From assembly GCA_963712115.1 (NCBI GenBank), contig CAVQGX010000034.1, positions 1-25,882 of the forward strand: a stretch of DNA of 25,882 bases, written 5' to 3'. A program made the position numbers and the translations under genes. The notes under the pieces were generated by a model. It had not been told where the DNA came from, ran no database searches, and saw only the letters and a program-made list of their open reading frames with translations. Source of the stretch: an uncultured delta proteobacterium. Lineage in GTDB: Bacteria; Desulfobacterota; Syntrophobacteria; BM002. Position 1 is the stretch's first letter. Each line of letters begins with the position of its first letter. Shown piece after piece: positions 1,966 to 10,084 of the stretch.

Positions 1966-2209
1966 TTAGTAACCATACCTCCAAAAAACTATTACCCCAC
2001 CTGACAACAGCAAGCTTTCTTTTTTAGCCATATCCTGTGATTTATTAGAAATGAAATAAGGCTTGGCAAACAGGCACAGGAGGTCTGAGAGTGTCAAGTC
2101 TATATTTTATAGAGCCATTCCAGAGCCGATCTAACATGTTATCAGATTAACACGCACAAATCGATAACGTATATTGTAATGTTTCAGACAGGTCAAGAGA
2201 AAAAAGGTG

Positions 2210-3522
2210 TTAGTTTGGTACGGCAGTCAATTGTTGTTGGATTCGTCCTTGGTTGACCTGTCTCCTTCGTTCTTTGGCAATTTGAACCATCTGCCTGTAG
2301 TGATTGAGAAGCTGGCTCTTGTTTCCGAGACGGTGGACATCGCCAGGGGTATAGTTCCACAGGGCCTGATGGGGCCGTTGTTCGTTGTAGTAGTCAATGT
2401 AGTGGGCCAGGCACAGGCGAGCGATCTCTTCTGAAAGATACGTGGGATAGCAGTAGATCTCTTCTTGTTTCACTGTCCGGTACCAGCGTTCCTGTCGGGC
2501 ATTATCCGTAGGACGATACGCTCTTGCTGGGGAGAGCAGCATCTCCAGGTCTTTGATCAGCCGCCTGGTCTTGATCGCCGTATTGGGTGAACCCTGATCT
2601 ACCCGGACAATGGGTTTGGGATGTTGATGCTCGATTCTCTCACTCATGTAGGCAAGTGCCAGGAGTGCTTGAACCTCTCGTTGGGTGACGGTCTTCACCA
2701 CGGCCCAGGCTACGATGTAACGGGAAAAATAGTCGATAATAGTGAGCAGGTAATGCCTCAATCCGGTAATCGACAGAATGGTCCAATCCTCTCCCCAGAT
2801 CTGGTTCGGGCGAAACGGTTCATATCGAGCTACTTTCCAGGGAGCCGTCCGCAGACAGGCAGCCATGACCCAGCCGAGAGCTTTGAGCCGACGGTAGCAA
2901 CTCGAAGGGCTGATCCAATGACCGTCCTGTCGCAACAAACCACTGACTTGGCGATGGCTGAGCTGAGGCTCTCCTTTCTTCTTCTTGATGATGGCGTGCT
3001 GTTCCTCAGCAGTCAGACGGAGCACGGCGGCCGACTTCTTTCGGACTGTAGGAGGGTTCAGCCAAACATAGTATGTGGAACGACAGACCCCAAGGCCCCT
3101 GAGCGTCTCTGATATGGAAAATCCTTGAGCACGGAGCCTTTGGACTTCCTCGAGGATCCGATGCCGCTGCTCCTGGCTGTAGGTGGCTCCCGTGGGACGG
3201 TTCGTTAGAGCAAGTTCATCTCTTTTTTTAAAAGCATCAGCTCTTGGGTCTGCAGAGCCAGGGCTTCCTTCAGTCTCTGGTTCTCTTTCTCCAGCTTCTT
3301 GATGCGGGGATCCAATCTGGGCTTCTTCCCACTCAGAAACGCTTGCGCACCCTGCTCCAGAGCTTTCCTCCATCGGTAGAGGGTCTGAGGATGGATCTGA
3401 TACTTCTCCGCTACCTCGACACCGTTTCCAGATCGCTCCCATTCCCTGAGAATCTGGAGCTTCTGCTGAGGGGTAAACCTTTTGGCCTTTCGCCGAGTTG
3501 GGATGACTAGTTGTACGCTCAT
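2210..3522 (-). CDS. IS3-family OrfAB DDE transposase made by -1 frameshift at A7 (3223-3229)
   Basis: Slipping -1 at TTA AAA AAA G joins OrfA to KRDELALTNRP...; rve core with WGEDWT, IIDYFSR, RVDQG, DNARQERWYRTVKQE, YYNEQRPHQAL. The 3568 start in the ORF track is probably not the real start. Confidence 0.8.
3205..3522 (-). CDS. IS3-family OrfA (HTH plus coiled coil)
   Basis: AGGAGGAG RBS; RFTPQQKLQIL...VAEKYQIHPQTLYRWRK HTH; leucine-zipper-like IKKLEKENQRLKEAL. Confidence 0.85.
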   Translation of the reverse strand: MSVQLVIPTRRKAKRFTPQQKLQILREWERSGNGVEVAEKYQIHPQTLYRWRKALEQGAQAFLSGKKPRLDPRIKKLEKENQRLKEALALQTQELMLLKKEMNLL

Positions 3523-3646
3523 GCATCTTCCTCCTCCTGGTGACTATAGCACTCTCTTGAGCGTCCAACTAACACCTTTTAGGGGCTGAAACTGTCTAGA
3601 TCGGATTGAAACATTATATATAGACTTATCTTGATCACTACAAAAC

Positions 3647-3697
3647 ATTACATCCCTTAATTCACACTCGGCTAAAATTTACTCTGGCACAAGATGT
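3647..3697. repeat. Module-boundary direct repeat, copy B (intact)
   Basis: ATTACATCCCTTAATTCACACTCGGCTAAAATTTACTCTGGCACAAGATGT; its first 23 nt equal the rejoined flanks of the IS1111 element. Confidence 0.9.
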
Positions 3698-4129: not shown

Positions 4130-4821
4130 CTAGGGTTTTTGGGTTTTTGTTATTTCTTGCTTAATTGCGCTTGCTAAATCTTCACCAACTATAATTGGGT
4201 CCCTACTAGGTTTTTTCTTATGCCAGGTGACAGCTATAATAACTTGTCCTGTGGTTACATCGACAATCCTTGCTGTCGCCCCGATATTTCCGTGTATTGT
4301 TCGCCCGATGCAAATTTCCCCAACATGAGAAACTTGCTTCTTTCCTTCGCTTCGACATTTCCTACTAAAAGATAATCTACACTGGCTATCTTGCCTATCT
4401 TACGATAATCAACATTCTCTGTTATACCAGTTTGACTAAGCCCATGTTCTTCGAGAATACTCGCAAGGTATGAGCGCTCAATGACTTTACACCCCGAGTC
4501 AATGAGGTTAGCTCCCACTGTATCACTAACAAGAAATCCCACACTGGGAATATCAGAGTAAAATGGTAAAACACCCAACACCTTGCCTGCAATATTACAG
4601 CTTGGAGTGGAATAAGATTTAGGGATTGGAGGAGTAGGAGAAGCACAGGCTGTTATCAATCTTTCATTTTGGTATCCTAAATACAATCCGTTTCCATCGT
4701 AAACTGCCGATGGTGTAAGAGAAGCTTTTTTGCCTTCTCCCGGCGTAGGCTCGGCATATGCAAAAAAGCCAACACCCATAACCAAAGCTAGGATGACAGT
4801 ACAGACACCTATCTTTCTCAT
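4130..4821 (-). pseudogene. CsgG/TolB-N-fold-like exported protein, frameshifted at a G4 run (4279-4282)
   Basis: KVIERSYLASILEEHGLSQTG...KIGKIASVDYLLVGNV is CsgG-like. Adding one G restores ATARIVDVTTGQVIIAV...KTQKP*, ending at 4130. Could be an assembly error. Confidence 0.65.
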
Positions 4822-5033: not shown

Positions 5034-5331
5034 AAGCGGTACCGGAAATAATGAACTAAAAGAGAGATACATGAATATGCGGTTACTTTGCACCAAAGAA
5101 AAAATATAGTCAAACAATTTTTTTGTAATATCGTATATTTATCAACATGGTGCAAGGTTGTTAATTTGTAGATAACTCTTCTAATATCCTCATATTCGTG
5201 CCAAACTCTTTTAACAATTTACTTACATTGCAGAGCAAAAAAAATAGCCGTGGACAACCAGGGAGAAAGTGAAATAGGCTGCATGGATAAGGTGGAGAGA
5301 AATGAGAAATCTCGGACTGCTATAAATGCAG

Positions 5332-5342
5332 ATTACATCCCT
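5332..5342. repeat. Module-boundary repeat copy C, left part (up to the CT core)
   Basis: ATTACATCCCT is identical to 3647-3657. Confidence 0.85.
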
Positions 5343-5364
5343 TCTATGATGGCCTTGTTGTCAA

Positions 5365-5731
5365 GCCCTCTTTTGGGGTGAGAGGTTTTTGCCTTGCTTT
5401 TCACTATATTTTCGAAGCATCCGAACCGAGGATGACCCGCAGCTGGATCCGGCACCGCGCCCATGCGCCTTATGGTCTTTGGTTGTCTGGTTCCGTGGGA
5501 CGTGGGAGTGCGTGGCTCCTGTCTACCACCTTCTATCCGTGCCGCAGGTTGTAAGCGGACACCTAATACTGCATGCGCTCAGCGCCCAGTGGAACCCAGA
5601 GGAAAGATGCCCCATCTTAATTACGGTGTGTGTCTCTCACCCAGGGAAGTAACGGGCATCTTTACAACCAAAACCGCTCAGAGCTTTACGAGATCCCGAT
5701 GTGGTTTACTGCCAGAGCGCCCACATCCTGT
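5365..5731 (-). ncRNA. Putative bridge RNA / seekRNA region of the IS1111 element (exact ends unknown)
   Basis: A 10-bp stem (5603-5612/5654-5663) encloses an internal loop matching both halves of the insertion target; a second long stem (5486-5600) contains CTTCTAT, matching the element's own end. Confidence 0.75.
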
Positions 5732-6883
5732 CTAAACGATCGCCTTGAGACACGCCCCTTCAGGGATGAGTCCATGTGTTCGAAAACGCCACAGTGCAAT
5801 GAGCAGTTTGCGGGCCAGAGCCACAATGCCAATACGCCGCATGCGCTTGCCTCCATGGGCAAAGCGTTCATTGAACCACCGACTCAGCTCGCTTCTGGGC
5901 TGGTAGCGTAACCAGGACCAGGAAATTTCAACAATGAGTGTGCGGATCCGCTTGTTTCCCGCCTTACTAATTCCCTGTTCCCTGTGACTCTCACCACTGG
6001 TATAGGGCGTTGGCGTCAGACCCGCACAGGCACCCACCTCCCGACGATTGCCAAAGGTGCGCCAGCCAAAAAACTCTTTTTCAAATACCCAGCCACTGGT
6101 TATGCCAATCCCACACAGGCTCATCAATTGCGCCACTCGCCTGTCAGAGTCCGTATCCCCCCGGCGAATCCGCTCTCGTTGCTCCTTCTCCAGAGTCCTT
6201 ATCTGCTCTTCCACATGGCGCAGTCGTTCATGCTCCCGGATGAGTCGAGCTCTCAGTTCACCGGGTACCATCGTGCCATCCCACAGGCGTATCGTCTCTA
6301 TATAGGTCACAAAGTCTTTCCTGCTCGCATTGCTAAGCTCGATCCCGTGTAACTTCAAAAGCGAACGCATCCGGTTGCGGTGCATCGTGCGCTCATCTCT
6401 CAACGTCTCCAACTCCCGGTGCAAATGCCTGGCATCCTCCTCATCAACACTTGGCACCCGCACCACACTCCACAGCCGTCTCTCTCCAGCACAAAACCGT
6501 ATCAGCATCCGCACCAGGCTGCCGGCATCCAACCGATCCGTCTTCGCTCGCCTCTTGCGCCGGCTCACTTCAATACTGGAAGAATCCACCACCACGTTGG
6601 CGATCCCACAACTGTGCAAATAGCGGTGCAACCAAAACCCGTACCTGCCTGCTTCATAACAACTGACCACCGGCGTGTTAGTCGGCAGTCCAAAACGCCT
6701 CCTCGCTCTGGCAATGGCATCATGTAGCTCCAGCATAGCCCCGGAACCAATCACCTGGTTCTTGACTCTACCGCCGTCACTGAAAGCCAGCTTCCACTTC
6801 CTCTCAGAGAGCTCCAAGGCAATGTACAAAAACTTTTCAACTGTGCTATTCTCCCTCTTGAGGGTCGCTTGGATCTGGTTCAT
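5732..6883 (-). CDS. IS110-family (DEDD RuvC-like plus Tnp domain) recombinase/transposase
   Basis: IALELS, CYEAG, AKTDRLDA; C-terminal CGIG, AGLTPTPYTSG (catalytic Ser position), ISKAGNKRIR, VALARKL; GGAGG RBS. Confidence 0.95.
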   Translation of the reverse strand: MNQIQATLKRENSTVEKFLYIALELSERKWKLAFSDGGRVKNQVIGSGAMLELHDAIARARRRFGLPTNTPVVSCYEAGRYGFWLHRYLHSCGIANVVVDSSSIEVSRRKRRAKTDRLDAGSLVRMLIRFCAGERRLWSVVRVPSVDEEDARHLHRELETLRDERTMHRNRMRSLLKLHGIELSNASRKDFVTYIETIRLWDGTMVPGELRARLIREHERLRHVEEQIRTLEKEQRERIRRGDTDSDRRVAQLMSLCGIGITSGWVFEKEFFGWRTFGNRREVGACAGLTPTPYTSGESHREQGISKAGNKRIRTLIVEISWSWLRYQPRSELSRWFNERFAHGGKRMRRIGIVALARKLLIALWRFRTHGLIPEGACLKAIV

Positions 6884-6965
6884 TGTAACCTCCTTGGTCC
6901 TTTGGGTTTGACAAGTACCTCTTTATACCACCAAAGGACTATCCAAGCGGCCCTTCATAGCATCT

Positions 6966-7005
6966 TAATTCACACTCTGCTGGATTTCAAACTGGCACAA
7001 TATTT
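6966..7005. repeat. Module-boundary repeat copy C, right part
   Basis: TAATTCACACTCTGCTGGATTTCAAACTGGCACAATATTT aligns to copies A and B. Confidence 0.85.
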
Positions 7006-7349
7006 AGTTTCCTGTCAACGACTGCTTCGACTCCGCTTCACTGCGCCTACAGCCCTTTGCCCAGCAAGCCCAACAAGCACAGCAAAAGGTCAAAAAAAAT
7101 GGTGTGCGCATTTGGCAGGCGCGTCCGGCACCTGCACGAAAAGCGCTGGAGGGACTACCCGGCCTCCGAATTCGGGCGCTGGTGCGATTGCGTTCGTTCG
7201 AGCTGGCGGGCATGGTGGCTGCGGCGAGGATCGGCTGGACCGAAGTGGCGCTCTTAAGCCTTCGCATCGCGGGGGTATCGGTAGTAGGCATTGGTCGAGG
7301 CAAGATCGTCGATTCTGGGGGCGATTTGGGCGTCGGATTGTTCCGATTT

Positions 7350-7427: not shown

Positions 7428-7503
7428 TGGTGGGCGGGACAGGAGTTGAACCTGCGACCCCCGGCTTGTAAGGCCGATGCTCTCCCCACTGAGCTACCCG
7501 CCC
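7428..7503 (-). tRNA. tRNA-Val(TAC)
   Basis: GGGCGGGTAGCTCAGTGGGGAGAGCATCGGCCTTACAAGCCGGGGGTCGCAGGTTCAACTCCTGTCCCGCCCACCA; 76-nt cloverleaf, anticodon TAC, encoded CCA. Confidence 0.97.
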
Positions 7504-7633: not shown

Positions 7634-10084
7634 CTAGTGAGCAATAATCTCTTCTGAGGGTTCAGGAGTTTCACTTGGCACCATAATCTCCTCAGGTTCT
7701 TCTGCAGCTTTGCTGAATAGTTTTTCAGGATCCTCCAGCAACAAAGCTTGCTTAAGCACCTCATCCATGTGCTCAACCAGTACAAGGTCAACTTCCTTCA
7801 AGATCTTACCAGGAATTTCCTTTATATCCTTGGCGTTTTCTTTGGGAATAAGTACCTTCTTGACCAAGCCGCGGTGGGCTGCCAGCACCTTTTCCTTCAA
7901 ACCTCCAATGGGTAGCACCCGTCCTCGCAAGGTTATCTCGCCGGTCATGGCCAGATCTTTGCGAACAGGTACCTTGAGCAAAGCGGAGGCGATTGCAGTG
8001 GCCATAGTGATGCCTGCGGATGGCCCGTCTTTGGGAATGGCACCTTCAGGCACATGGACGTGTATGTCTAGCTTCTTGTAGAAATTCGGGTTGAGCTCTA
8101 GAGCAGCAGAACGGGAGCGTACATAGGTAAGTGCCGCCTGGGCAGACTCCTGCATTACTTCGCCTAGCTTGCCTGTGATAGTAAGGCCTCCTTTGCCCGG
8201 CATTGTAGCTGCCTCAATACCCAGCAGTTCACCACCAAATTCTGTCCAGGCGAGACCAATAGCGAGGCCGATCTCGTCCTTTTCCTCGGCGCGGCCGTAA
8301 TGGAACTTGGGTACACCGAGATATTTGGCTATACTTGGCTCGATTATCCTAATCAGCGTGTCGGGTCCCTGTTTAACTATCTCCTTGGCCACCTTCCTGC
8401 AGACGGAAGCTATTTCCCGCTCGAGATTGCGTACTCCAGCTTCTTTAGTGTAGCGGCGAATAATCTCATAAATTGAGCCATCAGAGAAGTAGATGTTTTC
8501 TGGCTTTAGTCCGTTGGTTTCACTCTGTTTTTTCACCAGGAACTGTTTAGCGATATTGACTTTGTCAAATTCAGTGTAGCCCGGCAAGCGAATGATCTCC
8601 ATGCGATCCTGTAAGGCCGGTGGTATAGTGAACAGGGTGTTGGCTGTGGTAATAAAAAGAACTTCAGACAGATCGTAATCCACGTCTAAATAATGGTCAT
8701 TGAAAGCAAAATTCTGCTCTGGATCCAGAACTTCCAGCAGTGCCGCAGATGGATCACCGCGGAAGTCCATGCTCATTTTGTCAACCTCGTCCAGGCAAAA
8801 CACAGGATTGTTGGATTTGGCCTTGCGCAGGCTCTGGACGATTTTTCCTGGGAGTGCTCCAATATAAGTGCGCCGATGACCGCGAATCTCGGCCTCATCC
8901 CGCACACCACCCAGGGAGAGGCGAATGAAATTACGCCCCAGAGCGCGAGCAATTGATTTGGAAAGGGAAGTCTTTCCTACTCCCGGAGGTCCCACAAAGC
9001 AAAGAATTGGTCCCTTTATTTTTTTGACCAGAGCCTGAACCGCCAAATATTCGAGTATTCTTTCTTTGGGCTTTTCCAGGCCATAGTGGTCCTCGTCCAA
9101 TATTTGAGAAGCCGCCTCAATGTCTAATTTGTCTTTGGTGCGATCGTACCATGGCAGGGAAAGCAGCCAGTCGATGTAGTTTCTCACCACTGTGGCCTCG
9201 GCGGACATGGGCGACATCAACTTCAGTTTCTTAAACTCGGCCCGAACCTTGTTGGCGGCTTCCCTAGACATGCGTTTTCGTTTGATCCGTTTTTGCAGTT
9301 CAGCCAATTCGTTTCTAAAGTCATCCTTTTCGCCCATCTCCTTCTGGATGGCCCGCATCTGTTCATTCAAGTAGTATTCCCGCTGGGTCTTTTCCATTTG
9401 TTTCTTGACCCGTCCCTTGATGCGCTGTTCTGTCTGGATGATCTCAATTTCACCGCTAATGTAGGCATACAACAGTTCAAGTCGCTTGAAGTGCGGGATG
9501 GATTCAAGGAGATTTTGCTTGTATTCAATTTTGAATGGCATATGGGAGGCAATGGTGTCGGCCAGTCGCCCTGGTTCCTCAATGGAGGAAACTGAAAGAA
9601 CCATCTCCTGAGAGATTTTCTTATTTAGTTTGGCGTACTTTTCGAAGGCCTGAATGGTGCTGCGCATTAAAGCTTCGATCTGGACATCTTTCTCAGTTTC
9701 CTCAGGTATCTCTTCAACCTGAACCATAAAAAAGTCCGGATTGGAGATAAATTTGACAATCTGTCCGCGCTTTTTGCCCTCCACCAGTGCTTTTACCGTA
9801 CCATCCGGCAAACGAAGCAATTGCAGAATGGTGGCCACGGCCCCCGTGCGGAAGATGTCTTTCTCCGAAGGAGTATCGGTTTTCGCCTTTTTCTGGGTGG
9901 CAAGAAAAATCGTTTTGTCTTCGCCCATGGCATACTCCAGGGCCTTTATCGATTTCTCCCGTCCAACAAAAAGAGGGGCCACCATGTTAGGGAAAATCAC
10001 GATGTCCCTAAGGGGCAGAAGTGGATATTCTTGCAGCATTGACGCCGCCTCCGTATCAATATTTTCGCGATTTTTCTTGAACAT
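7634..10084 (-). CDS. lon: ATP-dependent Lon protease
   Basis: PLLPLRD N-domain, Walker [15 protein letters not shown], protease motif PKDGPSAG; follows clpX. Confidence 0.98.

Follow-up and report, generated by a model that had tools for sequence, protein, structure and literature searches.

The window analysed here, a stretch of 25,882 nucleotides from an uncultured delta proteobacterium, carries an insertion sequence with one long recombinase frame and a large non-coding right end, whose features are compiled in Table 1. By its domains and predicted fold, the encoded protein is a recombinase of the IS110 family: it scored 57.7 bits against the Pfam profile PF02371 (Transposase_20), 28.8 bits against PF01548 (DEDD_Tnp_IS110), i.e., just below the cut-off of 29, and 191.2 bits against the NCBIfam model NF033542 (IS110 family RNA-guided transposase; cut-off of 140). 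A Foldseek search with an AlphaFold model built on 26 homologues (mean pLDDT of 81.7) retrieved chains of the ISCro4 or IS621 bridge-recombinase complexes as all of the best ten PDB matches (E of ~1e-13, TM scores of 0.52 to 0.63, 20 to 24% identity), while PDB matches by sequence alone were weak (E of ~1e-8) and lay in the C-terminal half. The KTDxxDA stretch aligns to ISCro4, and the motif GL-P----SG (S296-G297) as well as E77, D116 and D119 are invariant in 26/26 aligned homologues. The first catalytic acid, assigned by motif position and not by superposition, appears to be E24; it is located at the end of the first strand in the AlphaFold model and is also invariant in 26/26 homologues, so that the clade may use an E-E-D-D catalytic set. 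The element is part of a large clade. The protein search returned at least 8,000 matches at E of ≤1e-30, the closest among the matches listed being 84 to 96% identical, and homologues at ~52% identity occur in the culturable genera Cupriavidus and Paraburkholderia. The neighboring genes encode an AMIN-domain protein (1006-1965) and a CsgG-like lipoprotein (4255-4821), both inside repeat-bounded modules, and a Lon protease (7634-10084) beyond a tRNA-Val gene (7428..7503).

The limits of the element could be read to the base, since taking out positions 5343..6965 recreates a 15-mer that is present intact elsewhere in the window, and the filled and the empty target sites are just 1.7 kb apart. 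The core dinucleotide CT is found on each side of the element with no duplication beyond it, and the repeat carries on past the right target half at 6971..7018 (repeat family D2). The non-coding ends comprise 80 nt before the gene (left) and 389 nt after it (right). They contain imperfect subterminal inverted repeats, in which about 10 of the 12 letters are complementary with one indel. Most of the homologous loci have kept the same ends, i.e., AG|A[T/A][A/G][C/A]TATG on the left and CATAGA|AG on the right. The published IS1111 layout consists of a short left end and a long right end with the RNA (PMC11208160), and the subterminal inverted repeats of the group are described as 7 to 17 bp long; with its 80- and 389-nt ends, a predicted RNA at 5672..5478 in the right end and its inverted repeats, the element has this arrangement. 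Its layout is thus that of the IS1111 type, and the protein of 383 amino acids is longer than the range of 330 to 350 amino acids given for IS1111-family transposases (PMC11187229).

Table 1. Features of the insertion sequence, its predicted RNA and its target sites, with positions in the window.
Feature	Position	Strand	Remarks
Insertion sequence, 1621 bp	5343..6963	-	Left end (recombinase orientation) at 6963, right end at 5343
Recombinase gene, 383 aa, IS110 family	5732..6883	-	Sole long minus-strand frame here
Left half of interrupted target, TTACATCCCT	5333..5342	+	Includes core CT (5341..5342)
Second core CT and right target half TAATT	6964..6970	+	Together CTTAATT; core at 6964..6965
Empty, uninterrupted target 15-mer, TTACATCCCTTAATT	3648..3662	+	
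Right subterminal inverted repeat, GGCCATCATAGA	5343..5354	-	Read from sequence
Left subterminal inverted repeat, CTATGAAGGGCC	6960..6949	-	Partner of GGCCATCATAGA; read from sequence
Outward-facing TTGACA	5359..5364	-	16 nt from the right end
Bridge RNA structured core, predicted, 195 nt	5478..5672	-	Minimum free energy fold gives all helices
P1, closing stem	5672..5664 with 5486..5478	-	
Target-binding stem-loop	5603..5663	-	10-bp outer stem, 12x12 internal loop, 4-bp inner stem
P2, outer stem	5663..5654 with 5612..5603	-	AAAGAUGCCC with GGGCAUCUUU, perfect
P3, inner stem	5641..5638 with 5628..5625	-	GGUG with CACC, nine-letter cap
5' target guide, UUACUUCCCU	5643..5652	-	5' loop strand reads G, UUACUUCCCU, G
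3' target guide, AAUUA + core AG	5622..5616	-	3' loop strand reads GU, AAUUAAG, AUG; AUG at 5615..5613
Donor-binding stem-loop	5487..5599	-	Helices compensatory
P4	5599..5591 with 5494..5487	-	
Small hairpin within donor-binding stem-loop	5585..5575	-	
5' donor guide, AGUAU	5566..5570	-	Pairs with left end ATGCT, one G:U
P5	5562..5554 with 5546..5539	-	
3' donor guide, AUAGA + core AG	5529..5536	-	Guide and core at 5536..5530, then G (5529)

The outward-facing TTGACA box is found at exactly the same spacing in 38/58 distinct right ends, and on the circle junction it would face GATGCT at a distance of 17 nt, the corresponding letters being GATACT in most relatives. Circle-junction promoters are described for ISEc11 and ISEc21 and, more generally, for IS1111-family elements with seekRNAs (PMC11187229), and by analogy the conserved box fits a junction promoter of this kind. 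A hairpin that resembles a terminator and has a T run is located on the plus strand just inside the right end (5367-5385) and points inward from the left flank; it might stop transcripts that enter from outside and are antisense to the RNA and the gene. A promoter-like site is located on the minus strand at 6962-6990, with a -35 TTGAAA in the target repeat and a -10 TAAGAT across the junction of flank and element, where the uninterrupted repeat has TAAGGG; a promoter scan at this junction gave one site versus 0.9 expected by chance, so that the site is not evidence for a promoter.

A second, unrelated insertion sequence (2175-3620) encodes a DDE (rve) transposase on the minus strand (2210..3568; Pfam PF00665 and PF13683) and has the terminal inverted repeats TGTAATGTTTCA and TGAAACATTA. 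It sits inside the module that adjoins the empty target, and three copies of its left end are present in the genome. Homing of this DDE element to the 15-mer was considered and rejected, the adjoining module DNA being uninterrupted on contig C3 as well. A DNA contig of run X2 that joins 5334 to 6964 was likewise rejected as an empty version of the locus, because 8 of 80 letters differ; it has two other letters between the joined positions and was read as a variant copy of the repeat.

Downstream of the gene, the minus strand contains the hairpin that the sequence-only reading had proposed at 5663-5603 as a target-binding loop. Its letters are exactly as noted there, and ViennaRNA predicts the hairpin with a 12x12 internal loop both in the 392-nt non-coding region and in the 195-nt RNA. 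The 5' target guide has the same sense as the plus-strand sequence TTACATCCCT and would therefore pair with AGGGATGTAA of the recombinase strand; it matches at 9/10 letters, the exception being U for A at the fifth letter (5648), i.e., a genuine U:T mismatch at a distance of four letters from the core. The 3' target guide is the exact complement of CTTAATT (7/7). The match to the left half plus core and the exact match to core plus right half, as originally described, were thus both reproduced. The AUG that follows the core is the same as the beginning of the left end and accordingly looks like a handshake guide, a feature known from IS621 (PMC11208158). When the 389-nt non-coding end was shuffled 20000 times with its dinucleotides preserved, a 9/10 match to the first motif occurred in 136 and the exact second motif in 348, and the two motifs in this order at a distance of ≤80 nt were found in none (0/20000).

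The RNA predicted here extends beyond this hairpin, since a closing stem joins it to a second, donor-binding stem-loop that the sequence-only reading did not contain. The 3' donor guide has the same letters as the right end CATAGA|AG, and the G at 5529 copies the first letter of the right flank, again resembling a handshake guide. The six helices (P1 to P5 and the small hairpin) were read from the window sequence and from A2, a sequence-only MAFFT alignment of 69 RNAs from which duplicates, N-containing rows and incomplete rows had been removed; the loci L018, L022 and L037 carry the motif described below but were left out of A2 and of the flank analyses. In A2, 80.5% of 2514 cells were in standard pairs, compared with 37 to 50% when the 3' partners were slid by 1 to 3 columns, a comparison in which the tested structure is favored because it came from the window's own sequence. 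Both sides were altered in 30/38 pairs, which amounts to compensatory change, and none of 500 column shuffles of A2 matched any of the observed pairing measures. The helices of the donor stem-loop (4 to 6) were 80 to 95% paired and showed compensatory changes, and P1 was only 53.6% paired. RNAalifold on A2 recovered just two of the six helices, for which reason the structure was named by hand and its pairs were counted. The folding energy is unexceptional, with a z score of -1.89 for the 195 nt and of +0.16 for the whole 392-nt end. In Rfam, only two tRNAs exceeded the gathering score in the window, and the matches over 5300..7000 were all at chance level (E of >1), so that the RNA fits no Rfam family.

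The same downstream arrangement recurs in the homologous loci. The motif CACGGAUAGAAG of the donor stem-loop is present in 77/83 loci, and so is the motif CACGGATAGAAG downstream of the gene (the window, L004, L005 and L010 to L089). Of the six loci in which the motif is missing, five are cut less than 180 nt from the stop codon, and L054 comprises 337 nt downstream of the gene, still without the motif. With respect to expression, an RNA-library contig of X15 covers 5331..6408 at ~95% likeness; it continues into the flanking DNA and may therefore represent DNA or read-through. In X17 and X18, the RNA-library contigs account for parts of the gene and stop at 5638 and 5653, respectively. The cover of X15 ends by 7005 and X17 and X18 have none over 5343..5637, such gaps in cover being uninformative.

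The homologous loci were obtained from a metagenome scan with alignment A1, in which 585/599 candidate stretches encoded a relative of the recombinase and 80 loci were returned, and from genomes of related species, which added the usable loci L004 and L005 (one short locus, L002, was not used). The same RNA architecture is present in about 50 distinct metagenome elements and in one element of Cupriavidus necator N-1. Covariation of the donor loop with the element ends bears on the question of whether this loop has a function of its own. A stricter seekRNA reading would confine the functional RNA to the short target hairpin (~60 to 90 nt), with the protein recognizing the ends through the inverted repeats and the second loop being part of a longer precursor or a recognition element in DNA or for protein. 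The letters of the donor loop are indeed nearly invariant, and much of their match to the ends could hence reflect joint conservation, but the 5' donor guide shifts with the left-end variants: ATACT or ATGCT goes with AG[U/C]AU (with ATGCT, AGCAU is found in 4/6 loci, and the AGUAU of the window is compatible by wobble), ATAAT goes with AU[U/C]AU in 8/9 loci, and with AAACT the fourth guide letter is U or C in 10/10 loci, compared with A in 47/48 other loci. Moreover, the letter behind the donor core follows the first letter of the target flank in 55/56 loci with wobble counted (identical in 47/56, U versus C in 8, incompatible in 1), and the closing stem makes one unit of both stem-loops. A function of the short hairpin alone is accordingly unlikely. 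In the target loop, the two letters that come after the core are those with which the left end begins in 54/58 loci. The donor covariation is broken by L052, where the left end is ATACT and the donor guide and the post-core letters of the target loop are of the AAACT type.

The preferred reading, which we hold to be highly probable from the comparison of sequences, is that of an intact IS1111-type element of the IS110 family whose right end encodes a two-loop bridge RNA (seekRNA) of ~195 nt. In this mechanism, the 5' strand of the target loop would pair with the recombinase-sense strand right of the insertion point (AGGGATGTAA) and the 3' strand with the opposite strand left of it (AATTAAG), both pairings including the core (CT on the plus strand). 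The donor loop (5599..5487) would recognize the two ends of the element, joined in the excised circle, by pairing with both strands in a like manner. Strand exchange by the recombinase at the core would follow and place the element at TTACATCC|CT|TAATT with no duplication beyond the core. By analogy with IS621, ISEc11 and their relatives, we infer that the RNA is made, binds the recombinase and directs the reaction.

The central prediction of the bridge RNA reading, i.e., that loop and insertion site change together in homologous elements, was borne out across ~50 distinct elements. When seven flank letters were compared with the loop window, the own-locus mean was 5.04/7 on the left versus 4.27 between loci and 5.65/7 on the right versus 4.19 between loci. 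None of 10000 permutations reached the own-locus means (52 distinct RNA windows on each side), a count that overstates independence because the loci are related. Over the five letters that precede the core, the 3' target strand agrees with the left flank at identities of 0.76, 0.71, 0.69, 0.94 and 1.0 against a between-loci background of 0.24 to 0.46, and letters farther out are at background (49 loci). The left guide thus comprises five letters plus the core, and the AAUUA plus AG of the window is exactly the guide length of the family. Agreement of the 5' target strand with the reverse-complemented right flank extends over ~8 to 10 letters, and the register of this strand relative to the core varies (28, 17 and 5 of 50 loci). 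In spite of the relatedness of the loci, the pattern is also seen in highly divergent elements: an annotated IS110-family copy on plasmid pBB2 of C. necator N-1 (NC_015724.1) has the guides TAAGTGAGCC and CTTATAG, which match its own, different flanks. At the other end of the range, the window and the loci L010, L011 and L073, whose elements are 96 to 97% identical, differ in their outer flanks and share one insertion point within the 15-mer, and the X15 contig represents a fifth context of this insertion point. The same loop at unrelated targets, which would have spoken against guidance, was accordingly not seen, with five contexts sharing one point of the repeat; a caution comes from L013, whose RNA is the same as that of L012, yet whose site matches only 7/10 letters, which indicates that specificity is not absolute. 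Three loci of a genome of the same family (L121, L122 and L123 of G018) have ends that are 87 to 93% identical to those of this element and are flanked by a different, GC-rich site, CCGCCCCAA-AG-GGGTGGGG.

The presence of both target halves in the DNA of the element would also be expected if the split copy served as an attP-like site for recognition by the protein at the level of DNA homology. However, the two halves belong to different strands and occupy the two sides of a hairpin in which stem pairing is kept by compensatory changes, which argues for a constraint on RNA and not on duplex DNA, and the related IS621 and ISCro4 enzymes were solved with RNA in exactly the same role, so that an attP-like site is hardly credible. 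The RNA-guided targeting of the repeat, as first suggested from the window alone, is supported by comparative rather than experimental evidence, namely the family of the recombinase, the stem compensation, the covariation of loop and flanks, and the insertion point that the four close copies have in common.

The single mismatch of the 5' target guide had been taken to suggest that other natural target copies would read TTACTTCCCTTAATT. This expectation failed, as the sequence was found in 0/22 genomes of the family, with the genome of the window itself included, and none of the 85 target copies in the latter has T at the mismatch position. Instead, the guide is polymorphic at 5648 and 5650 among near-identical elements of other samples, and the comparison identifies the mismatch as a polymorphism of the guide. 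The X17 contig has A at the fifth guide letter and hence a perfect match (UUACAUCCCU), and further variants are UUUCAUCCCU in X15, UUGCAUCCCU in L011 and L073, and UUGCAUCCCA in L010. Rare target variants beginning with TTGCAT and TTTCAT are present in the genus; some of the guide variants thus have matching sites, and that of the window has none.

The element is a single copy in its own 4.9-Mb assembly despite 85 target-like sites, and it may therefore be weakly active or recently arrived. A more far-reaching interpretation is that the copy in the window is decaying or already inactive, its guide having drifted (U at 5648) in a loop that is still readable. This would accord with the single copy, with a guide that is two positions off that of the 96 to 97% identical relatives and with the absence of any target carrying the matching T in the genomes searched. 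Yet the recombinase frame is open and 96% identical to its relatives, both ends, both cores and all RNA helices are intact, the same guide version is present in DNA run X2 at a depth of 47, and other homologous elements also occupy sites with distal mismatches. Decay of this copy is thus doubtful, if less so than the alternatives considered above.

Bridge RNAs and seekRNAs were first described in 2024, and they were predicted for most IS1111-type elements in the same year. The bridge RNA of IS621, as described by Durrant et al. (2024, PMC11208160) and Hiraizumi et al. (2024, PMC11208158), shares with the RNA of this element the two internal loops, the use of one guide per strand on either side of a CT core that is included in every pairing, and handshake or handshake-like letters that adjoin the 3' guides; the recombinases have the same fold. 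On the other hand, the RNA here is located in the right end, downstream of the gene, in contrast to the 5' position in the left end of IS621, the order of the guides relative to the gene is reversed in comparison to IS621 and the IS110 group as presented in PMC11187229, the recombinase has 383 instead of ~326 amino acids at 20 to 24% identity and E24 instead of D11, and the 3' guides consist of five letters plus the core, unlike those reported for IS621. The comparison extends to the seekRNA elements of the IS1111 family, i.e., ISEc11, ISPa11, ISKpn4 and ISPst6 in the account of Siddiquee et al. (2024, PMC11187229), which have in common with this element a downstream non-coding region, subterminal inverted repeats and a top-strand guide that is located 5' of the bottom-strand guide. 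The seekRNAs of that study were shown experimentally (PMC11187229), whereas the RNA here is predicted from sequence.

With respect to the target, the genome contains 49 exact copies of TTACATCCCTTAATT and 85 with at most one mismatch, which are arranged in co-oriented arrays, e.g., 13 copies within 21 kb of contig C3 (C3:107322-128020). The 15-mer is the most conserved part of the repeat and has less conserved sequence on both sides; the repeat lies between co-oriented gene modules, the 15-mer being followed by a semi-conserved CACACT...CTGGCACAAGATGTTG, and downstream of it a GC hairpin with a T run is often found on the gene strand. The 15-mer is present in 16/17 genomes of the genus with 3 to 63 copies each and in 2/4 other genera of the family with 1 to 6 copies, and among 39 genomes of other families of the class, three have one copy each and the others none. 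A close relative of the element was found in its own genome only, apart from a 363-bp remnant in G011. The genus-wide occurrence of the repeat and the near confinement of the element to its own genome indicate that the repeat is older than, and independent of, the insertion. Homing to repeats is a familiar habit of such elements, and ISPpu9 and ISPpu10 reportedly insert into REP sequences. Further examples are IS621 itself, which homes to REP sequences, the IS1111-attC group, and IS4321 and IS5075 in the inverted repeats of Tn21 (PMC11208160). As in these cases, the insertion is in the conserved core of an intergenic repeat that exists in many copies, and occupied and empty sites are neighbors. 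What sets the present target apart is that this 15-mer is specific to the genus, is found where co-oriented gene modules adjoin and is neither an attC site nor obviously palindromic.

Overall, the element is a new example of a known mechanism and not a new kind of system, and the result is what a specialist would expect. Its value as an example is that it is fully readable: the guides for target and donor, the handshake-like letters, the stem that closes the RNA and the outward-facing promoter box could each be assigned to exact positions. Since near-identical elements vary their guides against an unchanged target, they also provide a natural read-out of mismatch tolerance. Furthermore, the guides pick out the 15-mer within a genus-specific repeat as its conserved core. 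One conceivable interpretation, which we consider quite improbable, is that the 15-mer is the crossover core of an undescribed, genus-wide module-exchange system and the element its dedicated parasite, comparable to the IS1111-attC group for integrons. If this were true, the bridge RNA would mark the functional center of the site to the base. In addition, an RNA-guided recombinase that recognizes all 85 copies could itself drive rearrangements between the arrays.
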